This document shows positions 2,230 to 57,453 of a stretch of DNA of 64,000 bases, piece by piece (the stretch's first letter is position 1; every line of letters begins with the position of its first letter). This DNA comes from Candidatus Woesearchaeota archaeon (GTDB lineage Archaea; Nanobdellota; Nanobdellia; Woesearchaeales; SM23-78): the NCBI GenBank assembly GCA_016930415.1, contig JAFGGS010000016.1:1359-65358 (forward strand), given 5' to 3'. The notes under the pieces were generated by a model. That model searched no databases. It was not told where the DNA came from and worked only from the letters and a program-made list of their open reading frames with translations. A program made the position numbers and the translations under genes.

Positions 2230-2427
2230 TTTTTTTCGTCTAGAACGCAATCTTCTCTACTTCGGGCATAATAGAAAAATATAAATACCATACTGACAAA
2301 AAAGACAATATTTAAAAAAGAGGATGCCAAAGGAATGAAAAAGCGAAGAATCGCATCAAAAAAGAGGACGCAAGGACAGGCACATTCTCAGCCAGACGCG
2401 TACACTACCTTTAGAGGACAGGAAAAG

Positions 2428-2829
2428 ATGGAACGAGCCCAGATATGGAGTATAGACGTCCTTTTGGCCGTCGTCATCTTCATATCGATAATGATCATCT
2501 TCTACGTGACCATAAACGCGAAAGAGACTCCTAGCCTAAAAGACCTCCAGACAGAGGCCAAGTTCATAGACGCCGAGCTAGAGAAGAACGAGGGTATCGC
2601 GTTCATAGAGAACGACGTGGTGGACTCAGCCAAGCTTGATGCATTCACGCAAGAAGCCTCTGTGAACTACGACGACGTCAAAGAAGAGCTTGGGATAGTG
2701 GGCGACTTCTGCATCTACTTCGAGGACGAGAACGGCTACCTCATAGTCCTGGAAGACAACAGGACAGGCATCGGGACGGGAGAGCTCGTCAACATAAGCG
2801 ACGTGCCCTGCGGGACGCCAATGCCATGA
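2428..2829 (+). CDS. Small pilin-like protein with class III signal peptide
   Basis: ATG at 2428 gives MERAQ-IWSIDVLLAVVIFISIMIIF: (K/R)AQ prepilin-peptidase motif plus hydrophobic stretch. The ORF-track start at 2335 is probably too far upstream. Confidence 0.65.
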   Translation: MERAQIWSIDVLLAVVIFISIMIIFYVTINAKETPSLKDLQTEAKFIDAELEKNEGIAFIENDVVDSAKLDAFTQEASVNYDDVKEELGIVGDFCIYFEDENGYLIVLEDNRTGIGTGELVNISDVPCGTPMP

Positions 2830-2870: not shown

Positions 2871-3332
2871 ATGATGCAATACCTCCTCGTGAGCATAGCG
2901 GCTTTCCTGGGGGTGTTCTGCGGATTCACAATAGCCTGCATGGCAGAGGAGGAACTAAAACTCGGAAGGAAATACTTCAACTGGCTGAGGCACGGGCTTT
3001 TCGTCGTGATACTGGCCATCTTCTTCTACCACAACCAGTCAGTGATATTCTTCATGTTCGTGCCTGCCATAATAATAGTCATGAGCTTTAGCAAGGAGCG
3101 GGAAGCATTGTATTATTATGCGCTCGCTCCCATAATGTTCCTGTCCTACCTCTACAACGGCTTCCTGTCAATAGCCACCCTAGTGTTCCTATACGGCTTC
3201 CCAGTAGGCACGCTCCACAGGGAAGCGCATCTTAAGGAGCATTGGAAGAAGAGCGTGAAAGGAATAATCTACGCTTACGGCGGCTTCTTCATCCTCAACA
3301 TCGCATTCTCAGCCCTACAGCTATCTTTATAA
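2871..3332 (+). CDS. Hypothetical multi-pass membrane protein
   Basis: 153 aa with 4-5 hydrophobic segments and genome-typical codon usage. Confidence 0.75.
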   Translation: MMQYLLVSIAAFLGVFCGFTIACMAEEELKLGRKYFNWLRHGLFVVILAIFFYHNQSVIFFMFVPAIIIVMSFSKEREALYYYALAPIMFLSYLYNGFLSIATLVFLYGFPVGTLHREAHLKEHWKKSVKGIIYAYGGFFILNIAFSALQLSL

Positions 3333-4016: not shown

Positions 4017-4134
4017 GCCCCCATAGTATAGCCTGGATATCGGCGAATCTTGATTCGTCGAGATTTGGCCGATAGGACAAATAGTACGTGAGCTTGCGGA
4101 GCTTATAGCCGGGGTTCGAATCCCCGTGGGGGCA
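4017..4134 (+). tRNA. tRNA-Arg(GCG) with an intron in the D-loop (about 4038-4077/4078)
   Basis: Acceptor GCCCCCA/TGGGGGC; anticodon arm TGAGC-TTGCGGA-GCTTA; T arm CGGGG-TTCGAAT-CCCCG; a ~40-nt hairpin interrupts the D-loop. Confidence 0.9.
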
Positions 4135-33263: not shown

Positions 33264-33347
33264 CGCCACAGCTCGGACAACAGAAATTCTTGCGAATTTC
33301 TGAGTCCAAACCGCGTCGCTTCGTTTCACTCAGCGCCACAGCTCGGA
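33264..33347 (+). repeat. 14-bp direct repeat of the tRNA-Ser 3' end (CGCCACAGCTCGGA at 33264-33277 and 33334-33347)
   Basis: Exact match read directly from the sequence. Confidence 0.85.
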
Positions 33348-33434
33348 TTTGAACCGAGAATTCCGTAAGGAACCGGTTAACTCGATTGTTCTGATGTTCG
33401 AGACCGGCGCACTACCGAGTTATGCGACTGTGGC
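33334..33434 (-). tRNA. tRNA-Ser(CGA) with an 18-nt canonical 37/38 intron
   Basis: GCCACAG/CTGTGGC acceptor, CCGGT/ACCGG anticodon stem, long variable arm, BHB central helix CTCG/CGAG, intron CATCAGAACAATCGAGTT. Confidence 0.93.
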
Positions 33435-43492: not shown

Positions 43493-44284
43493 TCAGGCCT
43501 TCTTTGAGTCGGTGTAGAATTGCCTTGCGATCTGTGCGTACTGCTTTATCAGGCTTCCGAAGTCATTTGTGGTAAGCGCCCTGCTGATGACTTTCTCGTC
43601 GAGCTTGTGCCTGTCTCCGAGCAGCTTCACATAGGCCTTGAGCTGGTCCATCTGGTCTGGCTCGATGCCTCCTAAGATGTCTCTGGTGATGACTCCGAGG
43701 TGATGTTCGATGTTCTCCTCTGCAAGGCTTAGGATTACTGCTTGGTCTATTGTCTTTCCGTCCTCTGCAAGGGGCTTTAGCTTTCGCTTCCAGAAGCCGC
43801 TGTCCATTTGGAAGTGGTGCTTCATGACTGTGTCTGCGAGCGATACTCCTTGTTTGTCCTTTATGCCTTTGTTAGTCTCGTATTGCTCTGGCGTGGATTC
43901 GAATACTCTTAGGTTGGTGTGGTACCTGAACTGTTCCAATATGCCTTCTCCGAGAGCATCTGTTTCCTCTGGCGTGAAGGTCGTCTTGTAGCGCCTGACC
44001 TTTCTCTCATCAGTGTATCTTGCGTGGTCGAGGTATTCGTCTGCGATTGCAGGTGCAATCTGGTCGAGCTTGTTGTTGGTCTCCCTGTTCTTGATCGCTG
44101 AGGAAGTGCTGTCAAATGCCTTTACCTGGTCTTCTGAAAGGCTTGTTGCTATTGGTTCAGCTGGCATTGCCGCCTGCTCCTCTGCTGACTGGCTAGCGTG
44201 ATTAGAATCATCTTGGCTTTTGGCGAGCATCTCGTCTGCTCTTTCCATAGCTATCTGTTTTGCACTCTTCGGTTCGTCGCTCAT
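43493..44284 (-). CDS. Hypothetical protein, paralog A
   Basis: Aligns by eye along its length with 44449-45183. Confidence 0.75.
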   Translation of the reverse strand: MSDEPKSAKQIAMERADEMLAKSQDDSNHASQSAEEQAAMPAEPIATSLSEDQVKAFDSTSSAIKNRETNNKLDQIAPAIADEYLDHARYTDERKVRRYKTTFTPEETDALGEGILEQFRYHTNLRVFESTPEQYETNKGIKDKQGVSLADTVMKHHFQMDSGFWKRKLKPLAEDGKTIDQAVILSLAEENIEHHLGVITRDILGGIEPDQMDQLKAYVKLLGDRHKLDEKVISRALTTNDFGSLIKQYAQIARQFYTDSKKA

Positions 44285-45369: not shown

Positions 45370-46665
45370 TTGGTGGATGCGCTCCTAAAATACGTTTCTG
45401 AACAGCTCAAGAAGGGCTACCAGCCAAGCCAGATAAAGGACGTGCTGGTCAGGCAAGGATACAGTCCAGCTCTAGTCGATGGCGTACTTGAGTCCGTCCT
45501 CTTGAAAAGAGGAGGTGCGCCCAGACCAAGCCCTGCGCAGGCAGGCCCTATATCTTCCTCGTCAAGCTCAAGCTCTTCATCAATAATAGTCCTTGGCGGG
45601 ATAGTCGCGATCATCGCGATAATAGTCCTCGGCATCATGTTCGTGCCAAAGATGTTCACGAAAGAAGCCTTGCTCGACGTCATGACGACACCAGACCAGG
45701 GATCATATCATCCTGGGGAAGAGGTGGGTTTCGACCTGGAGATATTCAACATGGGATCAAAAGACCGGTTCGACATAACGCTCATATACAGGGTCCTTGA
45801 CGAGAAGGAGAACGTGGTGGCGAGCAAGGAGGAGACAGTCGCGGTATCGACCTCGACGAGCTACCACAAGAACGTAGACCTGCCGACCAGCATGAAACCT
45901 GGTGATTACACCTTGAAGGTCTTCGCCAACTACGACAAGAAGATAGCGACAAGCTCATTCTCCTTCAAGATAGAGCCAAAGGAGATAGTGCTTCCAGAGC
46001 AGCGGGAGAGCTGTTTTGACAAGAAACAGAACCAAGATGAGACAGAAGTAGACTGCGGAGGCGTGTGCGGAGGATACTGGTACAACGAGAAGTGCAACGC
46101 AGTCCCAAGCGGAAGCCAGCCAACCCAGACCGCCAAGGAAGGAACCTGCAGGGACGGCATAAAGAACCAGGACGAGAGCGGCATAGACTGCGGAGGCGTG
46201 TGCGGAGGCTACTGGTACGACCTCAAATGCCACGACGAGCCAAAACCCGCATCTACAAGCCAGGACCTGTTGATCGTGTCGAAGAAGAGCACGGGAGCCA
46301 AGCTCATAGACCTAAAAGTCCAGGCAAAGACAGACCCAGAAGGCGCAAACCAAGGATGCCTGGCCTCTGACGAGGACAAGATAAGAGACACCTGCATAAA
46401 ATCAGTCGCCCAGGCAAGCATGCAAAGCAAGTACTGCGAGCTCATAATCTCAGACAACGAGCGAGACCTATGCTACTACCCCTTCTTCATGCAAGGAGAC
46501 TACGCTGTCTGTGAGAAGCTAGTCCTCAAGGAAAGCCTCCAGACTTGCGCCCAGCTAAAGCAGATATCAGGGATGACACAGAACCTGCAAGCGCAGGCAA
46601 CAACCGCGACGCCTATCCCTGAAGAGAATACGCCAGAAGGAACCCTCCCTGAAGGATCTGAATAA
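45370..46665 (+). CDS. Single-pass membrane protein: short helical N-domain, TM, Ig-like domain, two DCGG-GYWY repeats, Cys-rich C-domain
   Basis: Translation; near-identical DCGGVCGGYWY repeats at about 46051 and 46186. Confidence 0.78.
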   Translation: MVDALLKYVSEQLKKGYQPSQIKDVLVRQGYSPALVDGVLESVLLKRGGAPRPSPAQAGPISSSSSSSSSSIIVLGGIVAIIAIIVLGIMFVPKMFTKEALLDVMTTPDQGSYHPGEEVGFDLEIFNMGSKDRFDITLIYRVLDEKENVVASKEETVAVSTSTSYHKNVDLPTSMKPGDYTLKVFANYDKKIATSSFSFKIEPKEIVLPEQRESCFDKKQNQDETEVDCGGVCGGYWYNEKCNAVPSGSQPTQTAKEGTCRDGIKNQDESGIDCGGVCGGYWYDLKCHDEPKPASTSQDLLIVSKKSTGAKLIDLKVQAKTDPEGANQGCLASDEDKIRDTCIKSVAQASMQSKYCELIISDNERDLCYYPFFMQGDYAVCEKLVLKESLQTCAQLKQISGMTQNLQAQATTATPIPEENTPEGTLPEGSE

Positions 46666-46776
46666 CAAAATTTTGCGAGTCATGATAACTCATCCTATAC
46701 TCGCAAAATTTTGAATTGGCAAACTCGCCCTGAAGGGCGGGGTATTAGACCCGCCTCGCAAGCTTCGCTTGCCAAT
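46666..46776. repeat. Multi-hairpin palindromic element (REP/MITE-like or bidirectional terminator)
   Basis: Perfect 15-bp IR CAAAATTTTGCGAGT (46666-46680) / ACTCGCAAAATTTTG (46699-46713); 8-bp IR ATTGGCAA/TTGCCAAT enclosing CGCCC-TGAA-GGGCG and GCAAGC-TTC-GCTTGC. Confidence 0.75.
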
Positions 46777-46898
46777 AAATAAGCTAGGCACATAATACAG
46801 TTCTTAGCATTAAGCCAGCAAGCAGATGACCTTATAGAAGAATCTCTCCCTTAAGACCAAGCAAGAAAAGCCATGATAAAAAACAGTTTAACAACCAC

Positions 46899-49193
46899 CT
46901 AAGAGATGATCGGCAGAAGATCGCTCTTGAACTGGCCGCTGTACTTGCCGATGTAGTTCATCTCATCCAAGGCAATCAGGCAAGCGCCCGGAGGTACGCT
47001 CCTGGTCACGTCAGGAAGCTTCAAGGCATAGAACTCTATGTTGCTGCCGCTGTCAAGATCAGCCGCTGTGAGCGTTATAGTCCCTCCTGCGTCAGGATCA
47101 TCCCTGAAGTCAAGGCCGCCCCACATCGCAGGCTTCATAGAAATAGGACCATCTTTAGGCAACGGTTCGTGACTAGTGCATATAACGACGTTCATCGTGC
47201 ACACCTCTGTGCAGTTAGCAGGTATGATGACCCCATTCTCATCTATGAGCGTGGCGGTAATCTGATACCTGCCAGGCACTAGCTTTACAGGAGTGCTTGC
47301 GACTCCTTCCTTGCCGATTATAAGGTTATTGCTGACAGGCCTGTCCCCCACATCTGCGCCGACCTCTATAATCGACATCACGACCTGTTCTGACAGGAAA
47401 TCAAGGTCCTGCGAAGGCCCAATGCTGGCAGGCCCCGCGCTCCACTGCTTATCATTATCCCTCAAGAAGAGCTTCAGGATCTCCTTCTTCTTAATAGTCG
47501 CGGTAAGAGTCCTGATCTTCTTCAGGTTCTGAGTGGGAATCCACGCGTTGACATCAGCGGCAGTGGTCAGAGGCACCCTTCTTGAGCCATAGCCCTCCTT
47601 GGAGATATACATGTAGCCGCCTGTGCATACAGGCAATTGGCCTACCCACGAAGCAGAAGAGCCATTGATCTCGGTCATGCCGACAAAGCACTGGTCATAA
47701 TCCCCGCAGCCAAAGCCGATCATGGCGTCCTCAAGGGGCTGGCCGTCCTCGCCTGCGACAGACACCTTGATGTCACCAGAAGTCCAGGTGTTCTCCTCGC
47801 AGAACAAGCTCTTGGTCTGGCTGCGCATCTGAGGGACTGAAGAGGTGCCAGAACCATTCAGGACACCGTTAGGAAGATTGATGATAGTCGTGATATATGA
47901 GTCATCCCAATCAGCGGTTCCCACTCCTAATATCCATGCAAGCGCCGGCTTGTTCTCTATTATATTAGACTCAATCGCGAACAGGAATGAGTACTCCGGA
48001 AGCTCTGTATTGTTGTCATAACCCCTGATCTCAATGAATAGGGGATATGCGATGTCATAGAAGAACCTGTAAGTATTGCTGCTTGTCGCAGGCAAGTTGT
48101 CGCTTCCAGGACGCGTGGCCACGCTAGGCTTGATGATCTCCCCCCTGGAAGGCTGGACCCTCATAGCCATGCCCCGATTCTTGTAGAGGAATGTGACTGA
48201 CAAGTTCTCCAGGCTCTGGTTCGATAAGTTCATGCTCAGGCTCTTGAAGAAAGCAGCCTCCACGTCATCACCATTAACCTCTATAGGGACGTATTCCCTG
48301 GACCCTGCGACCTGCAATGCGGGCACGTAGCTGACCAAGAGCGAATTAAGGTCGTTCTGGACCTTGCTTTTGCTCCAAGTGATTATGTAAGGAGCGTCGC
48401 TGTGGGAGATGAACGGCGGCAAGAGGTTCGTGTCAACGCCGGAATAATAGTTGATGAGTGAAATGGTGAAGCTTTCGCTGAACTGAGACCTGAGAGCGAC
48501 GTCAACCATCTGGATAGCCATGGCGTAGTATTCAGTCAGCGGAAACCTGACAGCAGTGTTGTAAGATTTCAGGTCCAGACTCCTCTTGCTGCTCTTAATG
48601 GTTATCGGATGGTTCAGGAAGAGCTCGATGTACTTGTCCCTTATCGCGACCTTGGCCTTGAACTCATCAGAAGTCTCGACAACATCGTAGCCCTCATCTT
48701 TCAAGGCCTTGAAGCCTTCAAGGCATCTAGGCATCTCGCGCTCGAGATACCTTGCCAGCTGGTATTCTATCTCAGAAAGCGACGGCATCGCAGTTGAGTA
48801 CTGGTAGTTGAAATAGCTGGAACGGCCAGGGATATGAAGATAGAAAGGCACGAGGTCCTTGTCATCATCTGTGAGCGAGACTACATCCGACTTGGTAGGC
48901 TCAGCAGGGAGATACTTGAGGTTAGCAGTCGTGAGCTGATTGTTCAAAGGCTCGATGTATCCTCCATGCGCCCCGAGCTCCTTGATGCCCTTAAGAGCCA
49001 CCTTGTGCATGCAATCCTCGACGAAACCCGCTACTGGCTTGAACTCCTCAGGGACAGTCTCTGTCCTGAACTCATTATCAAGACCAGGCCTCTTCAGAAG
49101 GGTATACGTCCCGAAGATGACTATCAGCAGGATCAAGCCTATAATTATGAACAAGGTAATCTGGGCCTTTTTTACACCTCTTTTCCTAAACAT
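46899..49193 (-). CDS. Large protein with class III (pilin-type) signal peptide
   Basis: MFRKRGVKKAQ-ITLFIIIGLILLIVI; carboxypeptidase-regulatory-like/Ig region near C-term. Confidence 0.78.
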   Translation of the reverse strand: MFRKRGVKKAQITLFIIIGLILLIVIFGTYTLLKRPGLDNEFRTETVPEEFKPVAGFVEDCMHKVALKGIKELGAHGGYIEPLNNQLTTANLKYLPAEPTKSDVVSLTDDDKDLVPFYLHIPGRSSYFNYQYSTAMPSLSEIEYQLARYLEREMPRCLEGFKALKDEGYDVVETSDEFKAKVAIRDKYIELFLNHPITIKSSKRSLDLKSYNTAVRFPLTEYYAMAIQMVDVALRSQFSESFTISLINYYSGVDTNLLPPFISHSDAPYIITWSKSKVQNDLNSLLVSYVPALQVAGSREYVPIEVNGDDVEAAFFKSLSMNLSNQSLENLSVTFLYKNRGMAMRVQPSRGEIIKPSVATRPGSDNLPATSSNTYRFFYDIAYPLFIEIRGYDNNTELPEYSFLFAIESNIIENKPALAWILGVGTADWDDSYITTIINLPNGVLNGSGTSSVPQMRSQTKSLFCEENTWTSGDIKVSVAGEDGQPLEDAMIGFGCGDYDQCFVGMTEINGSSASWVGQLPVCTGGYMYISKEGYGSRRVPLTTAADVNAWIPTQNLKKIRTLTATIKKKEILKLFLRDNDKQWSAGPASIGPSQDLDFLSEQVVMSIIEVGADVGDRPVSNNLIIGKEGVASTPVKLVPGRYQITATLIDENGVIIPANCTEVCTMNVVICTSHEPLPKDGPISMKPAMWGGLDFRDDPDAGGTITLTAADLDSGSNIEFYALKLPDVTRSVPPGACLIALDEMNYIGKYSGQFKSDLLPIIS

Positions 49194-49204
49194 GCAAATC
49201 TCAC

Positions 49205-50050
49205 CTACCTAGCTTTAAGGAGTTTCACCAAGGACATCGCGTACGACCTTGAAAACCCAATGAAAAACAACGTTATCAGGATTAATATCGGCCAGAAAAG
49301 CCAAATGATCTCAGCGAGGAATCCAGGAATCGCGATTGCAAGGTTGAAAAGCAGGATCACGACCGCTGCAAAGACCAGGAACCAGTGGATTCTCCTGAAA
49401 CTCAACCTGATCGTGTCACCAAACAGCTTGGACACCTTTGCCTTCTCATCATATTCAGACCTTAGGACAGCGTCTGAATAGAACAACAGCATTATTCCTG
49501 CCATGATGACGTACGTCGCGGCCTTCTCAGGCAGCGCTGCCATGATTATCAGGAAGAGCGCAAGCCACGAACAGGACCAGATTATGTTGACGAGGAAGAG
49601 CTTCTTGAAATACGAGAGTCTGGTCCTTGCGTTCTGCATGATAGCCCAAGACTTGCCATAGAAACCAGTCAATATGACAAGAAAAGCGACTGAAGCCGCT
49701 GCGAGCATGAAGAAGATAGACCATAAGGCTGACGTAATCTTTGGCTCTATCAGCGCGAACTCATCCTCATACCCTTGGACACCCATTAGCTTCATCTCGT
49801 TGATCCTCATCAGGTCAGGCATGACCTCGCTGTTTATGCGCCCGACAGCGAAATAGAACACTCCCATGAGCGCGATGAATGAGATAATGGCCAGTAGGTC
49901 AAAGAACGCCGCCCTCCAGAATACCATGGAACCAGCAGACTTCAAGCCAGCCATGAATGCTCCAGCCTGCTCCCTGAAAAAACCCATATGGCTACGGCTA
50001 ACCATCCTTTCTTTCGCATCCAGCTTCCTGGTCTTCTTACTCCGTCTCAT
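49205..50050 (-). CDS. Hypothetical multi-pass membrane protein
   Basis: About 6 TM segments; overlaps the upstream gene. Confidence 0.75.
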   Translation of the reverse strand: MRRSKKTRKLDAKERMVSRSHMGFFREQAGAFMAGLKSAGSMVFWRAAFFDLLAIISFIALMGVFYFAVGRINSEVMPDLMRINEMKLMGVQGYEDEFALIEPKITSALWSIFFMLAAASVAFLVILTGFYGKSWAIMQNARTRLSYFKKLFLVNIIWSCSWLALFLIIMAALPEKAATYVIMAGIMLLFYSDAVLRSEYDEKAKVSKLFGDTIRLSFRRIHWFLVFAAVVILLFNLAIAIPGFLAEIIWLFWPILILITLFFIGFSRSYAMSLVKLLKAR

Positions 50051-50693
50051 TCCTCAAACCTATCTCGTTCTCCATGATCAGGCTAGGATCATTGCTTCCA
50101 ACCATCCTGTACTCAAGCACGACCTTATCGTAATCATCTGTTATATACCTGACCTCGTAGCCGCTCGCACCGACCTGCTTGGTGGCCTCAAGGAAGGATC
50201 CTGTCACGTTGCCAGCCTTGCCTGCAAGGTATTCCTTATCGCTGCCCTTGCTCAGGTAGACTCTGTACTCCATGTCTGTGGTGTACGGCATTATGTACCA
50301 TGAAGCCTCGTAGTATGACGTGTTCCAATACAACGTCCTTATCGCTGAGACCGTGAGCGTGGTCGTGTAGATGTCTATGCGGTCATCGACGCTCCCAGAG
50401 CCCCTTACGTTCCTCACGTCAGTCGCGAGGTCAAGGAGGCAAACCTCCCGCTCCCAGTTCGCAAGGCCGAAGAAGGTGCCGTTGTACCAGTTGTAGATGT
50501 CAGCGTTGTCCTCAGGATCAAGATCATCCGAAGCAAAGGGATTCAAGCTGTTCCAGAAGTTCTGGAGCACGTTCCCCTGGGCCTCATCCCAGCTCTCGAA
50601 GATACCTGGCTTGTAATCATCCCTTGTAGCCGCCAGCGCAGAAGAGCAAAGCATGAGTATGCACAATCCTATAATCAAGGTTCTAGTTCGCAT
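50037..50693 (-). CDS. Hypothetical secreted protein
   Basis: Sec signal peptide MRTRTLIIGLCILMLCSSALA. Confidence 0.75.
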   Translation of the reverse strand: MRTRTLIIGLCILMLCSSALAATRDDYKPGIFESWDEAQGNVLQNFWNSLNPFASDDLDPEDNADIYNWYNGTFFGLANWEREVCLLDLATDVRNVRGSGSVDDRIDIYTTTLTVSAIRTLYWNTSYYEASWYIMPYTTDMEYRVYLSKGSDKEYLAGKAGNVTGSFLEATKQVGASGYEVRYITDDYDKVVLEYRMVGSNDPSLIMENEIGLRNETE

Positions 50694-53600
50694 AGTTCAC
50701 CCCTGAACAGAACTCTGCGCCGAGCGAGGAGATGTCTGTCGGAGACATGGATGTATACGCCGCGTTGTACAGGTTCTCCTTTACGCTTGTCAGTTCCTGG
50801 AGGCTCAAGAGCATGCCCATGACACCGCACGCCAGATTGCTGCCAACATTAAAGTAATCATCAATAGCCACTCGACCCCTTCTGTTATCCCCGCCAGCAC
50901 GCTGGTAATCATGGCACTTGAACGGAGGGACGAACATGTAAGTCACGACGGCCGCTATACCTATTATGTTGCTCATGAAAGCATCCTTGATCCCGTTAAT
51001 GAAATCACCGAAGTTGAAGCCTTCATCAAGCTTGTACCTCGCGCTCTCCACGTACATGCAATAAGTCATCTGGTACTCGAATTCGCAAGCCTCCAATGGG
51101 CCGCCTATCTTTGACATCTCATCGATGCACCCGAGCTTCTTGCAGAGCAGCTGCTTCTCCTTCTGGGAATTGAATATTATCGCAGGAATGCACAGCCTGT
51201 CATAATGCTTGCTCTTGTAAGGGTTGAATATCCAGCTACTATCAGAACCCATGAACGCGTCGACAGAGTCACGTAGCCTGATATTGGCATCCTCAAGGTT
51301 GGTATGGGATATGGGGTTCTTGGGAGTGAAACCTATCTCGTTGGACCGGGGGATAGTATAAGATTGTCCATTGTTGGAAGTTATCTGGATGTTATCGGCT
51401 CCCTGGACCCTCTGGACGCTTCCTGCAGGCGATGTTGAGGCAGTAGGAGTGACTCCAGTAACGTCATATATTGTCCCGTCTGCCGCTCTTACCGTAGCGA
51501 CAAGGCCAGACTCATCCCCTCTCACTGTTACTCCTCCAACAGTGTTAGAGTCCTGCGATGGGTTCGTAGGTTGGTTAGGCTGGTCCACGAGATAATGGTT
51601 CGCGACGCTCATGCCAATGTCGACCCAGGTGTTCATGTCATATATCTTGCAGTTATAGATCGTGCAGGTGTACTTCACGACGAAGCCGACGTCATTGGCG
51701 CCAGAAGGCCACCATCCTTGAGGCCAGAGATATTTCTCAACGCTGCCCTTGAAGCTTGAGGCAACCTTGGAATACGCAGTCCAGATGGCTTTTCCAGCAC
51801 CTTTGGTGTAAGGAATGTTGTATAGTATCAGGCTGATGCCGTAGATTATCGGCTGCAAGCCCTGGATGATGTTGTTTATCGCGCCAAGCTTCTCTGCCGT
51901 GTCGCAGATAGAGCCAAGGTATCTGTCATAGCCATTATACTTGTCGATCTTCTGGTCAAGCGCTCTTAGCTGCGCCTTGATATCCCTAACTTTCTTGTCG
52001 AGGCTAGCGTTGAGCGTGCCCAACGGCTGGTTGAACATCGTCAGGTTGGCCTTTATCGGCTCTACTTCAGGGTTGTTATACCTCACGTTGCCGTGCCTGA
52101 TCATGAACTCCTGAGAGCAGTTGACGTCCAGCCTGTCACCTATATCATCCCATTCCTGCACGTAGTGCAGAGATATCATCATGATAGGGGTCATGCTCTC
52201 GTCGTTTATCAGGTAAGCCTCTCTTGCGCCAGGGGTCTCTGAGCAGCTGACCTGGCTCCGCTCAAGGATGTACGTCTGGTCGTCGGCGAGAGTCATCTCG
52301 AGGCCAATAGGCACTTTCAGGTTAAAGCCGCTCTTGCTCGCCACCTTCCTGTCAATCCTGGGCATGGTTCCCCTCGGCAGGAAGGATCTGATGAAATCTG
52401 GCACTTCGTCTGACATCACGCATATGCTTACTGGGATGCTTTGCTTCACCTGATTCCCAGCAAGGTCTTCTAGAATCACTTCAAGGTTCGTGTTTATCTG
52501 CTTGTTCAGGAGCCCGCCGATGCTCAGGACGCAGTTGTACTTGCCCCCATCTTCCATCTGGCTGCAGGCAGACTCTGTCTCGTTCATCTCACTGATCTTC
52601 GAGGTGTCAGCCTTGATAACTAGCATCGGGCTTCCCTTCTCACTGGCATTCACAATGATCGTAAGGCTCTCTGAACTCGTAGGGCACTCAGGCTCCTGCA
52701 TGATCTCGCTCTCAAACTCAGGAGGGCTAGAGTCAAGCACAATCCTCGAAGTCGAGGTGCCTGAGATCGGGTTTCCAAGGTCATCCTCTCCCTTAAGAGA
52801 GAGCGAGGTGCCTCCTCTGACCGTCGCGTTGCAGACCCAAGTGCCTATGCACGCGCCTTTGGCGCCGTTGATCGAGACTAGGCTCTCGTTATAAGTGCTC
52901 TGGGCAGATATCTGGGCGATCACAGGATTGTTCCCTGGGTTCATGTAGCAAGTATCGCCTTGGCACCTCTCAGGTGGAGGAGTGATCGAGTTGACGCTTC
53001 CAGCGCTCATCACGACCGCGAAGCTGGGCGTGAGCATCATATTAGCCTTGCCGCCTGCCTCGTCATACACAGTCACGTTAACCCTGGGGCCTGCCTTTGC
53101 AGCCCGAAGGCCGACGCCCTCGACGATGCACAAGAACATCTTCTCATCTATCTCTTCGCAAGCGCTGGACTCGACAATGACCGGCTCGAACGAGGATGAG
53201 GAGCTGTAAGTCTTGAACTGGGCAAGTTTGTCAAGAGTGGTGTTGCCGCTGCTAGAGTCCTCGTCTCCTGAATCAACTGTCGGCTCAGTAGCGTTGCTTG
53301 TCACATTGCCATCCTCTCCTCCGAGGCTGGCAGTCTCTGCGCCTATCTCTGCGATGTCAGCGACCAAGCGGTTGACCGGAAACGCGCTATTATACTTTAT
53401 CTCGAAGTAAAGATCCGCAGGGAGGAGCCTTGAAGCGTTAGGCCCTCCTATCATGGTGATGTTCTCGAGGCCCCCTGGCTTCATGGCGAAGATCCTCGAG
53501 GTCATGGTCGGAGGAGTGACTGTTATAGGAAGGGTTGTCGAGAGGTTTGCGACGTTGCCAGCCACGTCCCGCACAAAGAAGGTCACTTTGCTGTTGGACT

Positions 53601-54516
53601 TCTCGAGCTTGATAGGAGTATTGGAATACTTGCAAAGAAAGGTCTGGTTGGAGTCAGGGTTGCAGTGCGAGCCCTTGAACTCCTTGCTCCCGTTGACAGC
53701 CGACAAGTCGACCCAAATGTCATTGTTCATGGCCTCCTCAGTGACAGTTATCACCAGGTCGACGGTTACGCTCGCGTTCGGCGGGAGGTTCTTGACTTCC
53801 TGGTCAGTGCCTGCCCTGTAGACCAATACCTTAGAGCCTATCTTAGGCGGGATGGACTCGACAAAGAACGGAGGTCCAGAGTAAGACTTCGTTGTCTTGA
53901 GGCCAGCGTAGTCCTCCACGATAATAGCAGATGAATTGATATTCCCCTTGATATTCGGGACCGTGCCCGTCACGGTGCTGTTCACCAAGCACACGCCAGG
54001 CGGGTGACTGACAGAAGTCGAAGGCTTGCCATCAAGTATTATCTGGACGCTCTTGATGCCAGAACACTTCTTAGGAGCCTCCTCGTTGGCCTCGTCTTTT
54101 ATGCTGTAGACCGCGCTAACGCCCCAGCCAGCGTTCTCAAAAGTCACCTTGGTGATGGACGGCGGGATCTCGTCAAGATAAGCGCTCAGGTACTTTGTGT
54201 CAAGCGACCCTTGCTCCCGCACGACAGAGTCGTGCTGGATCGAGACGTTCTTCACATCCTCTGAATACGTGCAAGTCACAGGGATGCTGCTGTCACACTT
54301 CATAGGCCTGAAGAAGCCAGTGTCATTGAAGTCGACAGTGACCGGCAACAGGCTAGTGGTTGTTATGGTGACTGTATCATTTGCCTTGATAGAGCCTGGC
54401 GCCTTATCCTTCCCTTCAATAGTTGCAGTGTATATCTCGGAGTTGACAAAAGGGAATATGCTCAAGGAGATTATCAAGTATATCATGAAGATAGATATCT
54501 GTTTATGCAATCCCAC
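50683..54516 (-). CDS. Very large secreted protein (1277 aa): Ig-like array, coiled coil, amphipathic/hydrophobic hairpins, Cys-rich C-domain
   Basis: Signal peptide; repeated D...P.I / D.AGN Ig motifs; many paired Cys. Confidence 0.8.
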   Translation of the reverse strand: MGLHKQISIFMIYLIISLSIFPFVNSEIYTATIEGKDKAPGSIKANDTVTITTTSLLPVTVDFNDTGFFRPMKCDSSIPVTCTYSEDVKNVSIQHDSVVREQGSLDTKYLSAYLDEIPPSITKVTFENAGWGVSAVYSIKDEANEEAPKKCSGIKSVQIILDGKPSTSVSHPPGVCLVNSTVTGTVPNIKGNINSSAIIVEDYAGLKTTKSYSGPPFFVESIPPKIGSKVLVYRAGTDQEVKNLPPNASVTVDLVITVTEEAMNNDIWVDLSAVNGSKEFKGSHCNPDSNQTFLCKYSNTPIKLEKSNSKVTFFVRDVAGNVANLSTTLPITVTPPTMTSRIFAMKPGGLENITMIGGPNASRLLPADLYFEIKYNSAFPVNRLVADIAEIGAETASLGGEDGNVTSNATEPTVDSGDEDSSSGNTTLDKLAQFKTYSSSSSFEPVIVESSACEEIDEKMFLCIVEGVGLRAAKAGPRVNVTVYDEAGGKANMMLTPSFAVVMSAGSVNSITPPPERCQGDTCYMNPGNNPVIAQISAQSTYNESLVSINGAKGACIGTWVCNATVRGGTSLSLKGEDDLGNPISGTSTSRIVLDSSPPEFESEIMQEPECPTSSESLTIIVNASEKGSPMLVIKADTSKISEMNETESACSQMEDGGKYNCVLSIGGLLNKQINTNLEVILEDLAGNQVKQSIPVSICVMSDEVPDFIRSFLPRGTMPRIDRKVASKSGFNLKVPIGLEMTLADDQTYILERSQVSCSETPGAREAYLINDESMTPIMMISLHYVQEWDDIGDRLDVNCSQEFMIRHGNVRYNNPEVEPIKANLTMFNQPLGTLNASLDKKVRDIKAQLRALDQKIDKYNGYDRYLGSICDTAEKLGAINNIIQGLQPIIYGISLILYNIPYTKGAGKAIWTAYSKVASSFKGSVEKYLWPQGWWPSGANDVGFVVKYTCTIYNCKIYDMNTWVDIGMSVANHYLVDQPNQPTNPSQDSNTVGGVTVRGDESGLVATVRAADGTIYDVTGVTPTASTSPAGSVQRVQGADNIQITSNNGQSYTIPRSNEIGFTPKNPISHTNLEDANIRLRDSVDAFMGSDSSWIFNPYKSKHYDRLCIPAIIFNSQKEKQLLCKKLGCIDEMSKIGGPLEACEFEYQMTYCMYVESARYKLDEGFNFGDFINGIKDAFMSNIIGIAAVVTYMFVPPFKCHDYQRAGGDNRRGRVAIDDYFNVGSNLACGVMGMLLSLQELTSVKENLYNAAYTSMSPTDISSLGAEFCSGVNYAN

Positions 54517-54602
54517 TGTCAGTTGCTCACCCTCTTTCCAGCCTCTTTTGAAAAATAGTATATAAATGTTGCGATTTTCATAGAATTCTCAAAATCTTCA
54601 TG

Positions 54603-55269: not shown

Positions 55270-57453
55270 CTACCTTATCTTTCCTTCAATTCCTTTCTCA
55301 ACAAAGACCTCTTCTGCGCCGCACAAGAGCCGGGTTCCTTCGCAGAAAGCCTTGCCGCCCTTGCCCTCAAGCTTTACAGTGATGAAGTCATCGATGGATA
55401 TCACGCCATTGTTCGGCTCAATGCCTTCTATCACCACCTGGCATCCAGGAGCAGAAGACTTGACACTCAAGAGTCCCAGGTTGTTCTTCTCATCAGAACA
55501 GGCAAGGAGCATTCCCTCGCTGACCTCGCCACGGAGCTTTGCAGGCTTAAGGTTAGAGACTATGATCAACTTCTTGCCAGGCAGCTCGTCTATATTATAA
55601 TATGCGCGGATGCCAGCCACTATCTGGCGCTCCTCAGACCCGAGGTCGAGCTTGAGCACGACCAGCTTGTCAGCCTGGGGATGGGCTTTTGCCTCTTTTA
55701 TCTGCGCGACCTTCAGGTTCAGCAAGGCAGCGCCGGACTTCTTAGCCTGACCCTCATTCTTCCCATCCGCGTCCTTTGGACTGTCTTTGTCTTTCTTAGC
55801 GCCAAACCGCTCCTTAAGCTTTACCTTATCCTCATCGAGCAGCTTATTGAAAAGCACCTCTGGCTTGCCGATGTGATGACCCTTCTCGACACTATGCCTT
55901 CCTAAGTCATCCCAACCCTTCTTCTCGATCGCGAGCTGCTTGAATATGCTCTCGCCAGTCTTAGGGAGGAAAGGCTCAATAAGAATTCCTAAATCCTTCA
56001 CGATATTAGCGAGGACGAAGAGGCTGCTGCTTGCCTTCTTGCGATCCTCCTTCACAGCCCTCCAAGGCTCAGAGTCCTGGAAGTACTTGTTGCCGGCGGC
56101 AGAGAACAGCATTATCTCGCGAAGCGCATCCTTAAGCTTGACCTTCTGGAGCAAGTGCGTGACGTTCTCATGCATAGGCCTCATCTCGTCAAGAAGAGAC
56201 TTTTCAGCAGGGCCGACATCGCCCGCAGGTATCTCGCCGTCAAAATACTTATCAAGGAAGACAAGCGTCCTGTTGACAAGGTTTCCAAGGTTGCCGATGA
56301 GCTCAGAGTTGAGTTTCTCCTGGAAGTCATCCCAGCTAAAGACAGTGTCAGACCGCTCAGGCCTGTTGATCAAGAGATAATACCTGAACGAGTCAGCGGG
56401 AAGGCCTGTCTTCATGGCGTCATCGCCAAAGACACCCGTGCCGCGGCTCTTGCTGAACTTCGAATCCTCATAGTTCAAGAACTCAGTCGTGCTCATGTGA
56501 TTCACAAAAGTGTACTTATCCCTCGTGCCCATCAAGGTGCCTGGGAAAAGGATCGTGTGGAAAGGCACGTTGTCCTTGCCCATGAACTGGTAAAGCGACA
56601 CACCCTCAGGATTCATCCACCAATTCTTCCAATCATCGAACTTATTGGCGGTTATGCTGATGTAACCGATAGGAGCATCGAACCACACATAGAATACCAT
56701 CTGCTCAAAGCCCTTGAGAGGGATTGGGATTCCCCACTTGAGCTGCCTTGAGATGCAACGCTTCTTCAAGCCCTCCTTAAGCCAGGCCTTGGTGTACTGG
56801 ATGGTGTTATCGCTCCACTCACCCTTTTTGCTGGCCTTCTCGACCCACTCCTCAATCTGGGGCTGGAGCTTTGCAAGATCCAAGAACAAATGCTTGGTGC
56901 TCTTCTTGACAGGCGTAGCACCGCAGACCTTGCACCTGGGAGCTTTTAGCTCGAAAGGATTAAGCATGTGGCCGCACTTGTCGCACTGGTCACCCCTTGC
57001 GCCGTCGTATCCGCAGTGAGGGCATATGCCTTCCACAAACCTGTCAGCAAGGCTCTTTGCGCATTTCTCACAATAAAGCTCCTCCAGGAAGTCCTCAATG
57101 ATGTACCCGTTGGCCTTGAGCTTCAGGAATATCTCCTGGGTGATCCGCTTCTGAGCCTCTGTGCTAGTCCTGCCGAAGGCATCGAAACTGCAGCCAAACC
57201 ACTCATATATCTCCTTGTGGACCGCATAGTACTTGTCGCACACCTCCTTAGGAGTCAAGCCCTCCTCCAAGGCCTTGACCTCTGTAGTCGTGCCGTGCTC
57301 GTCAGTGCCGCAGACAAACCTCGTCTGGAGCCCTTTGCTCCTGCAAAACCTGGCAAAGACGTCAGCGGAGAGCACGCAGCCTATGATGTTGCCCAGGTGA
57401 GGCACCGCGTTCACGTAAGGAAGCGCGCTCGTGATAAGCATCTTCTTAGCCAT
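55270..57453 (-). CDS. metG: Methionine--tRNA ligase with C-terminal tRNA-binding (Trbp111-like) domain
   Basis: TSALPYVN.VPHLGN (HIGH), GTDEHG, Zn knuckles, YVWFDAPIGY, KFSKS, RGEVSEGMLLA. Confidence 0.98.
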   Translation of the reverse strand: MAKKMLITSALPYVNAVPHLGNIIGCVLSADVFARFCRSKGLQTRFVCGTDEHGTTTEVKALEEGLTPKEVCDKYYAVHKEIYEWFGCSFDAFGRTSTEAQKRITQEIFLKLKANGYIIEDFLEELYCEKCAKSLADRFVEGICPHCGYDGARGDQCDKCGHMLNPFELKAPRCKVCGATPVKKSTKHLFLDLAKLQPQIEEWVEKASKKGEWSDNTIQYTKAWLKEGLKKRCISRQLKWGIPIPLKGFEQMVFYVWFDAPIGYISITANKFDDWKNWWMNPEGVSLYQFMGKDNVPFHTILFPGTLMGTRDKYTFVNHMSTTEFLNYEDSKFSKSRGTGVFGDDAMKTGLPADSFRYYLLINRPERSDTVFSWDDFQEKLNSELIGNLGNLVNRTLVFLDKYFDGEIPAGDVGPAEKSLLDEMRPMHENVTHLLQKVKLKDALREIMLFSAAGNKYFQDSEPWRAVKEDRKKASSSLFVLANIVKDLGILIEPFLPKTGESIFKQLAIEKKGWDDLGRHSVEKGHHIGKPEVLFNKLLDEDKVKLKERFGAKKDKDSPKDADGKNEGQAKKSGAALLNLKVAQIKEAKAHPQADKLVVLKLDLGSEERQIVAGIRAYYNIDELPGKKLIIVSNLKPAKLRGEVSEGMLLACSDEKNNLGLLSVKSSAPGCQVVIEGIEPNNGVISIDDFITVKLEGKGGKAFCEGTRLLCGAEEVFVEKGIEGKIR

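Follow-up and report, generated by a model that had tools for sequence, protein, structure and literature searches.

A conserved four-gene operon of undescribed families encoding a candidate surface structure of Woesearchaeota

A tightly coupled operon of surface-protein genes

Few DPANN archaea are as diverse and widespread as the Woesearchaeota, and we know of no member in pure culture and of no molecular account of their envelope or of their attachment to hosts. Here we analyze four consecutive genes, designated G1 to G4, in a stretch of 64,000 nucleotides (nt) of contig JAFGGS010000016.1 from a Candidatus Woesearchaeota archaeon, referred to hereafter as the window. An earlier reading of the same DNA (the original prediction) had taken these genes for a single, tightly coupled envelope operon whose products are a candidate apparatus for attachment to, or fusion with, a host cell. 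The genes and the signals that flank them are listed below, with product lengths in amino acids (aa).

50683..54516, minus strand: G1, whole gene, GTG start, secreted giant surface protein of 1277 aa
50037..50693, minus strand: G2, whole gene, secreted β-rich protein of 218 aa
49205..50050, minus strand: G3, whole gene, polytopic membrane protein of 281 aa
46899..49193, minus strand: G4, whole gene, protein of 764 aa with a class III signal
54559..54566, minus strand: archaeal TATA box (TTTATATA) matching the consensus, about 43 nt before the start codon of G1
54527..54531, minus strand: Shine-Dalgarno-like GGTGA ahead of the GTG start of G1
46878..46883, minus strand: oligo-T tract, 16 nt past the stop codon of G4

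The layout of the four open reading frames (ORFs) was as originally described: G1 and G2 overlap by 11 nt, G2 and G3 overlap by 14 nt, and a gap of 11 nt separates G3 from G4. Motifs of the Shine-Dalgarno type also precede the starts of G2 (GGGGTGA), G3 (GAGGA) and G4 (GGTAGGTGAG). Judged by sequence and position, the TATA box is the probable promoter of the operon and the oligo-T tract is probably an archaeal terminator that marks its end. Taken together, the bounds set by these two elements, the overlaps and the ribosome-binding motif at every gene have the look expected of a single polycistronic, translationally coupled operon, and this part of the original prediction held. ORFs of such lengths with hundreds of homologues far exceed what chance would produce.

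The four genes are conserved as a set

ORFs were called in all loci obtained from a scan of one genome per species (64 loci) and were then searched with iterated hidden Markov models (HMMs) of each window gene; a word-indexed search had yielded 46 homologues of G4. Among 67 full-length G4 genes, 45 had G3 directly upstream (type A) and 14, termed type B, were followed directly by a paralogue of G1 and had neither G2 nor G3; many of these lie next to a type A module. The remaining eight were left unassigned and lay mostly at contig ends. Where a type A locus included at least 5.5 kb of upstream sequence, G3, G2 and G1 were all present in 26 of 28 cases, and the same four-gene order persists down to 24-30% identity. 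Linkage was retained even on the deeply divergent contig L071, in the permuted order MetRS-G4-G1-(664-aa secreted protein)-G3. Two species, L039 and L052, have mature G2 joined in frame to the C-terminus of G1 with no intervening signal peptide, which argues that G1 and G2 act together. The co-conservation on which the original prediction depended is therefore present.

A paralogous two-gene module that lacks G2 and G3 and has G4' next to G1', in either order, is common; it often adjoins the four-gene module (L016, L018, L025, L037, L042-L044, L048, L057, L061, L062, L065, L066, L069 and L070); the window carries the four-gene form only. Since the smallest paralogous module consists of G4' and G1', we take G4 and G1 to be the core pair. 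When 1.84 billion representative proteins were searched in full with HMMER, a profile of the C-terminal part of G1 matched 1,186 clusters at 50% identity, 832 of them at E <= 1e-10. In the best 150 matches listed, nearly all proteins are about 1000-1600 aa long and carry the domain in their C-terminal half. The named relatives of the operon proteins all belong to the Woesearchaeota/Nanoarchaeota (DPANN/Nanobdellati).

The operon lies among housekeeping genes (MetRS, MCM, PolD, DnaK), both in the window and in the flanks of its relatives, a setting which indicates that the cluster is a vertically inherited core trait. We looked for an origin in a virus or a mobile element and found no PHROGs match, housekeeping genes on the flanks and preserved synteny with MetRS. 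These data establish the four-gene set as a real, lineage-wide gene module.

In the window, the gene for methionyl-tRNA synthetase (MetRS; 55270..57453, minus strand) lies immediately upstream of the module, as it does in L001, L003, L004 and the distant L071. Such a positional tie is unusually stable for an operon of surface proteins.

Four families without characterized relatives

None of the four window proteins matched a family in Pfam, NCBIfam or PHROGs, and no recurrent Pfam family emerged among the 37-45 members each of G2, G3 and G4 when these were scanned singly. Against all PDB chains the four families produced compositional noise only, whether compared by sequence or by profile. The statement that none of the four is a characterized family thus proved correct. 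Every relative of G1 is annotated only as a hypothetical protein, and no description of this gene cluster was found in the searchable literature; surveys of DPANN protein families go no further than noting numerous lineage-specific families that lack annotation and are located in the membrane or outside the cell. The four families, notably the C-terminal module of G1 and the α/β domain of G4, are without detectable characterized relatives, and the operon probably encodes an archaeal surface protein complex made of undescribed families.

The features that place these proteins at the membrane or beyond it were also confirmed by hydropathy: signals of the Sec type in G1 and G2, about six hydrophobic segments in G3 and one N-terminal helix in G4.

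G1 combines a fast-evolving array with a conserved C-terminal module

G1 consists of a long array of immunoglobulin (Ig)-like domains followed by a conserved C-terminal half, which was modeled with AlphaFold (residues 684-1277, alignment of 23 sequences). Model confidence is given as the predicted local distance difference test (pLDDT).

54439..54516, minus strand: signal peptide, residues 1-26, Sec-type, with h-region ISIFMIYLIISLSIFPFV followed by the predicted cleavage site VNS/E
52468..54438, minus strand: Ig-like array, residues 27-683, fast-evolving and sequon-rich, with one Cys pair per domain
52033..52392, minus strand: conserved β-sandwich, residues 709-828, in the model at pLDDT ~90
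51727..52014, minus strand: helical hairpin, residues 835-930, in the model at pLDDT 78-88
51937-52002, minus strand: heptad coiled-coil segment LDKKVRDIKAQLRALDQKIDKY, residues 839-860, with perfect 4-3 hydrophobic spacing
51811-51870, minus strand: moderately hydrophobic tip IIQGLQPIIYGISLILYNIP, residues 883-902
51235..51564, minus strand: low-complexity disordered linker, residues 985-1094, pLDDT <50
50686..51234, minus strand: Cys-rich helical domain, residues 1095-1277 (NPYKSKHYD...LC...C...C...C...C...), with invariant Cys

The N-terminal hydrophobic stretch spans residues 6-24, and the signals of homologues end in ...SVFA/E. A class III signal ('HKQIS') was considered for G1 and rejected: it is unconserved, and homologues end in the Sec-type ...VFA/E site. 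In a consensus of 38 G1 sequences the Ig-domain boundary motif DxxGN...DxxxPxI recurs at least five times, each repeat with its Cys pair. Pfam matches to Big families were found in 9 of 38 homologues (Big_13 in five, Big_3_3 in four), all below the gathering score; the window G1 itself had no Big-family match at E 0.5. All 22 N-x-S/T sequons of G1 precede residue 837. Per 100 residues, G1 has 1.7 sequons, G2 has 1.8 and G4 has 0.9, compared to 0.27 in the cytoplasmic proteins of the window.

The two halves of G1 diverge at different rates. In the mid-distance relatives L003 and L004 the N-terminal array is 27-28% identical to the window protein, compared to 42-47% for the C-terminal half and 38-47% when its two conserved blocks are taken separately; in the closest relative the N- and C-terminal values are 48% and 77%, respectively. 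Exposure of the N-terminus and confinement of the C-terminus in a complex would produce such a gradient.

Within the C-terminal half, the model contains a helix of 66 residues (835-900), a turn at I901-P902, a return helix of 29 residues and then two short helices. The peptides quoted in the original prediction map to this region (LDKKVRDIKAQLRALDQKIDKY at 839-860, IIQGLQPIIYGISLILYNIP at 883-902 and AGKAIW at 907-912), and the coiled coil is seen in the model, as is the helical hairpin that ends in a hydrophobic tip. Since the coiled coil has no intramolecular partner in the monomer model, residues 839-860 are suggested to form an oligomeric coiled coil. The linker that follows varies in length from about 50 to more than 300 aa between species, with identities of 6-27%. 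The Cys-rich domain was modeled at pLDDT 50-87, and its C-terminal end is the point at which G2 is fused in some species. G1 has 29 Cys in total; 13 conserved Cys lie from residue 684 on.

A homologue of G1 (L012:3984-8330) has a PG_binding_1 match at residues 1065-1093. This is a peptidoglycan-binding family, but the match covers half of the domain at 22.8 bits (cutoff 23) and falls in the variable linker, so that it is no more than a weak hint of binding to bacterial walls.

The hydrophobic tip and the proposal of membrane insertion

The original prediction assigned G1 the role of a host-contact stalk whose membrane-inserting or fusogenic hairpin tip would create a pore, a bridge or a fusion site. 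Several properties speak for such a machine. The long helix and its return helix carry a tip that is rich in Gly, Ala and Ser as well as hydrophobic, the heptad coiled coil fits a trimeric spike, and DPANN archaea need host contact, the machinery for which is unknown (PMC11329633).

The hydrophobicity of the hairpin was compared across 46 G1 homologues, using the median of the best 17-residue hydropathy value for each segment. The first arm of the hairpin had a median of 1.55, compared to -0.36 for the adjacent coiled coil, which served as the control, and reached values like those of transmembrane segments (>=1.6) in only 48% of homologues. The tip is thus conserved in its hydrophobicity. However, the return arm had a median of only 0.69, so that just one arm of the supposed hairpin is hydrophobic, and that moderately. 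A second hydrophobic pair near the C-terminus, also part of the original prediction, does exist in this protein (residues 1179-1197, hydropathy 1.72) but is not a property of the family, in which the two C-terminal segments had a median of about 1.2. On these values the tip of G1 appears as a conserved hydrophobic patch rather than as a conserved transmembrane hairpin.

Structure searches point the same way. When residues 684-1277 were compared with the PDB using Foldseek, no match fell below E 0.03, the confident matches were all Ig-like domains, and those of the β-sandwich were generic (Ig/cadherin/SbsC-like). Viral models (BFVD) gave nothing below E 0.014. No likeness to a pore-forming toxin, a translocator, a class I-III fusogen or a fusexin appeared in the PDB or in BFVD, and no PDB sequence match was obtained. 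The best matches of this region were generic Ig-like domains at E >= 0.014, and the claim of a membrane-inserting tip or fusion apparatus was not borne out.

The position of the hydrophobic module also argues against insertion into a host. The G1-G2 fusions imply that the C-terminus of G1 is extracellular, like its N-terminus, so that the chain would cross the membrane either not at all or an even number of times. Furthermore, the module resides in the conserved, slowly evolving half that adjoins the G2 fusion point and would be bound in the complex, whereas the Ig array at the free N-terminus changes at about twice that rate; this argues that the module is cell-proximal and not, as originally placed, at the distal end. 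The simplest reading of the gradient and the fusions is that the conserved C-terminal module would be held at the cell's own membrane in a complex with G2, G3 and G4, with the Ig array exposed. We therefore consider a host-inserting machine very unlikely. A more specific form, in which G1 would be an oligomeric coiled-coil spike, leashed to a base of G2, G3 and G4, whose hairpin tip enters the host membrane and opens a bridge or fusion by means of a novel fold, is in our judgment just as improbable.

G4 carries a conserved prepilin-type signal and a β-sandwich stalk

G4 was modeled with AlphaFold from an alignment of 45 sequences (mean pLDDT 85.8).

49095..49193, minus strand: class III signal, residues 1-33, KKA/Q followed by the hydrophobic helix QITLFIIIGLILLIVIFGTYTLL; helix 9-33 in the model
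47919..49061, minus strand: α/β domain, residues 45-425, pLDDT mostly >90, with motifs HGGY, FFYDxxYP and FALExNLIENK
46902..47801, minus strand: three CnaB/transthyretin-like β-sandwich domains in the model, residues 465-764

The N-terminus of G4 (KKA/QITLFIIIGLILL) has a short basic n-region and places the cleavage motif ahead of the hydrophobic stretch. Residues 10-28, at the N-terminus, are the sole hydrophobic segment of the protein. Across about 60 homologues the pattern is (K/R)(G/A/S)-Q-(I/V)-(T/S)-x-(F/Y) and then a hydrophobic run of about 20 residues, with Q11, T13 and F15 at least 90% conserved, and the pilin-type signal originally ascribed to G4 is thus well founded. Because a plain membrane anchor needs no conserved residues at a cut site, G4 is predicted to be cleaved by a prepilin-type peptidase at A10/Q11.

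The first part of G4 also occurs outside this family. A protein of 1193 aa (L072:10001-13582), encoded alone among glycosyltransferase genes, shares only the first ~210 residues of G4 (E 1e-36). The occurrence of the same N-terminus on an otherwise unrelated protein indicates that the signal and first subdomain are a reusable unit and suggests that the N-terminal part of G4 is a portable anchoring module.

In the model, helix 9-33 is followed by helix 49-75 and then by β-strands, and a disordered loop separates the α/β domain from the β-sandwiches, which span residues 475-760 there. The α/β domain had no match by structure (Foldseek of whole G4 against the PDB) or in the sequence and profile searches. 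The β-sandwiches alone gave Foldseek matches, of which B. anthracis TIE was best (E 2.7e-6); others were Gram-positive pilins (BcpA, SpaA/SpaC, RrgC-like), teneurins and carboxypeptidase-regulatory domains. A CarboxypepD_reg match was found by Pfam in two G4 homologues. SlaB of S. acidocaldarius (8qox_B) was matched at E 1.9e-4 and probability 1.0 over 211 columns, with a template modeling (TM) score of 0.12-0.18 and a root mean square deviation of 16.7. Global TM-scores of the G4 matches were just 0.1-0.25, which indicates a shared CnaB/transthyretin-like stalk domain without establishing membership in any of these families. The concern that the proteins might model as ordinary S-layer proteins still carries weight: the β-sandwiches of G4 do match SlaB and pilin stalk domains, although the SlaB match is a generic one with low TM-scores. 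The Gram-positive CnaB pilins and MSCRAMM adhesins (BcpA, SpaA/SpaC, RrgC, B. anthracis TIE) resemble G4 in having tandem CnaB/transthyretin-like stalks (E 2.7e-6 to 1e-3). Unlike G4, which lacks a sortase motif, they are bacterial and sortase-linked, and at TM-scores of 0.1-0.25 the likeness is that of a common domain fold.

The prepilin-type signal raises the possibility that the operon encodes the tip complex of a type IV pilus, in which G4 would be a bulky 'modular' minor pilin, G1 and G2 a non-pilin adhesin like PilY1, and the pilus machinery would be encoded elsewhere. Strict conservation of a motif that a plain anchor does not require is consistent with this, as are the reuse of the G4 N-terminus on the large L072 protein and a small pilin-like gene in the window at 2335..2829. 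The likeness to PilY1 and minor-pilin tips, and to the modular pilins PilB and PilC of Streptococcus sanguinis, extends to the general plan: a protein with a prepilin-type signal carries bulky domains and is co-encoded with a Sec-secreted, adhesin-like protein of more than 1000 aa, variable at its N-terminus and conserved at its C-terminus. However, no homology to PilY1 or to known pilin folds was detected and no Pfam match to PilY1/PilC was found; the top 50 Foldseek matches of G4, where the query was the whole multidomain protein, included no type IV pilin structure; and neither the window nor the flanks of the four loci with Pfam annotation (L003-L006) encode an assembly ATPase, a platform protein or a prepilin peptidase. 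The conserved, six-segment G3 is without a counterpart in tip complexes. Moreover, archaeal class III signals serve non-filament surface proteins too, such as sugar-binding proteins of Sulfolobus. We put little faith in a pilus tip.

The 'bindosome' sugar-binding proteins of Sulfolobus offer a different precedent, in that a prepilin-type signal fixes a large extracellular globular protein to the cell's own membrane. They differ from the operon in that they bind solutes and are served by a Bas ATPase and membrane system of their own, whereas the operon has no linked ATPase and the partners here are a giant Ig-like, a small secreted and a polytopic protein.

G2, G3 and a frequent companion, G5

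G2 is exported by a Sec-type signal (MRTRTLIIGLCILMLCSSALA/A). Its motif W..WE.EVC..WGGT includes the invariant residues W69, E81 and C85, and the mature protein has a single conserved Cys. The 13 conserved Cys of G1 and the one of G2 leave an odd number in each protein, so that an intermolecular disulfide is possible. Speculatively, such a bond could involve C1270 of G1, which lies seven residues short of the end at which L039 and L052 have G2 attached.

In the distant relative L006 a gene of 506 aa (L006:8427-9947) appeared at first to fuse G2 with G3. Domain mapping rejected this: it is a G2 with a coiled-coil insert of ~300 aa between signal peptide and β-domain, and G3 follows G4 in that locus.

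G3 has about six hydrophobic segments by hydropathy and is poorly conserved in sequence. An archaeosortase-like or other enzymatic function was considered and rejected, as no conserved Cys/His/Arg pattern, no other catalytic-looking invariant residues across homologues and no family match were found. G3 also failed to match the T2SSF/FlaJ families. On these grounds G3 is tentatively read as a structural membrane platform.

A fifth gene is the usual companion of the operon: in 24 of 34 loci it was found no more than 2.5 kb downstream of G4.

45370..46665, plus strand: G5, convergent with the operon, membrane protein of 431 aa

G5 has a short cytoplasmic N-domain, a single transmembrane helix and a domain of Ig/MG2-like type, plus a pair of Cys-rich 'DCGGxC' repeats; its MG2/Gmad2 matches are weak. 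Two inverted repeats at 46690-46800, between the convergent G4 and G5, are probably the terminator hairpins of the transcription units on the G4 side and the G5 side.

A proposed self-anchored surface spike or coat, or possibly an S-layer

The four-gene set almost certainly specifies a major surface structure. Building on what is shown above (the organization of the operon, its co-conserved and in places fused genes, the class III motif of G4, the domain layout and the gradient of conservation), we propose that the operon encodes a self-anchored spike or coat complex on the surface of this Woesearchaeal (DPANN) archaeon, an interpretation to which we give an even chance of being correct. G4 would be exported, cut at its class III signal by a prepilin-type peptidase and kept in the cell's own membrane by its N-terminal hydrophobic helix, where it would hold up the three β-sandwiches and the α/β domain. 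Processed G4 and the six-segment platform G3 would form the base. G2 would act as an adaptor that binds the Cys-rich C-terminal domain of G1, perhaps joined to it by a disulfide. The C-terminal module of G1 would oligomerize through its coiled coil and dock onto this base of G2, G3 and G4, and the fast-diverging Ig array, probably N-glycosylated, would point outward to make adhesive contact with partner cells or surfaces. The binding partners, oligomerization, distal end, glycosylation and adhesive role in this scheme are inferred.

Several points weigh against it. A lattice-forming S-layer would look much alike on evidence of this kind. The orientation of G1 assumes that the variable end is the distal end, which is an indirect argument, and the model of the C-terminal part of G1 is of moderate quality (mean pLDDT 68.8). 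No prepilin peptidase or pilus machinery was found in the window or the annotated flanks of L003-L006, and no Peptidase_A24 was among the scanned window ORFs. Finally, three metatranscriptomes of the same study contained no contigs on the operon but two perfect contigs on MetRS, although this is weak evidence.

The main rival is that the operon encodes the S-layer or main coat of Woesearchaeales, with G1 as the lattice glycoprotein (the role of SlaA) and G4, together with G2 and G3, as the membrane-anchored stalk (the role of SlaB). As in the SlaA/SlaB system of Sulfolobales (PDB 8qox), a large, secreted β-rich protein, putatively glycosylated here, and a membrane-anchored stalk of tandem β-sandwiches are encoded side by side, so that the G4-G1 core recalls slaAB, and a coiled-coil element is present in both systems. 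The large, sequon-rich, Ig-like G1 resembles the proposed S-layer proteins of Nanobdella (MJ1_0160) and Nanoarchaeum (NEQ300), which come from the same archaeal class and have many N-glycosylation sites (bioRxiv 10.1101/2023.10.27.564410). Those proteins differ, going by their description only, in that neither a hairpin-linker-Cys-rich C-terminal module nor partners like G2-G4 are described for them. In addition to the SlaB match of G4, the β-sandwich of G1 matches SbsC domains of an S-layer protein (probability 0.99, E 0.13). The low-complexity spacer adjoining an anchoring domain, the large family in a core genomic position and the TATA box that matches the consensus also fit a major coat protein.

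Against this stand both the nature of these matches and the make-up of the proteins. The Foldseek matches are generic β-sandwiches with TM-scores of just 0.1-0.2, the comparison of G1 684-1277 with the PDB produced no SlaA match, and neither SlaA nor SlaB shows sequence homology. The membrane anchor of SlaB is a transmembrane helix at its C-terminus, after a coiled coil, whereas G4 has an N-terminal class III helix; the coiled coil lies here in the giant G1; and there are two additional conserved partners, G2 and the polytopic G3. G1 is unusually rich in Cys, its long linker differs several-fold in length among species, and many genomes have a second paralogous module. Separately annotated 'S-layer protein genes' are among the top-expressed genes in Woesearchaeal metatranscriptomes (PMC11606122), while the relatives of G1 are all unannotated. 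The metatranscriptome contigs noted above, weak as that evidence is, do not favor a main coat protein either. We regard an S-layer as possible but rather unlikely. Whether spike or coat, the operon is a good candidate for a Woesearchaeal envelope or host-contact structure.

Other genes of the window

Elsewhere the window has the gene content of ordinary chromosome, with UvrABC, DnaK/DnaJ/GrpE, MetRS, TFB, CorA and a P-type ATPase. Several further genes are listed below.

2335..2829, plus strand: protein of 164 aa with a class III-type signal (...MERA/QIWSIDVLLAVVIFISIMIIFYV)
2871..3332, plus strand: next gene, polytopic membrane protein of 153 aa
24916..27213, plus strand: secreted protein of 765 aa with an Ig-like N-terminal part, a transmembrane helix and a cytoplasmic tail of ~150 aa
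44449..45183 and 43493..44284, minus strand: tandem paralogues of 244 and 263 aa
61971-62122 (plus strand), 33334-33434 (minus strand) and 4068-4134 (plus strand): tRNA genes found with Rfam

The 164-aa protein, which has a weak N-terminal match to the G4 HMM, is a candidate small pilin. Pfam matches were lacking for this protein and its 153-aa neighbor, for the 765-aa protein and for the tandem paralogues. The 765-aa protein has eight Cys-rich repeats of the form C.DG.KN..E.G[VI]DCGGPC.PC, a repeat that occurs twice in G5. Genes of the same size occupy the position of the tandem paralogues in L003 and L004, but an HMM search found no homologue beyond the window's own contig, and the pair is outside the widely conserved module. 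ARAGORN in bacterial mode reported no tRNA genes; two of those found with Rfam, at 152 and 101 nt, contain introns, judging by their length, which supports the archaeal origin of the window.

Implications for Woesearchaeota

This analysis defines a concrete, lineage-wide gene set, four linked families plus G5, in which every member is annotated as hypothetical. The fast-evolving Ig array and the paralogous modules provide a marker for the diversification of the cell surface in this lineage. Should the improbable inserting spike prove to be correct, it would offer a route to the cytoplasmic bridge or fusion by which Woesearchaeota feed, through a fold unrelated to known pore-formers and fusogens. 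If G1 is an S-layer protein, the question of what the Woesearchaeal envelope is made of would be answered; if it is a host-contact spike, the question of how these archaea attach to their hosts would be.

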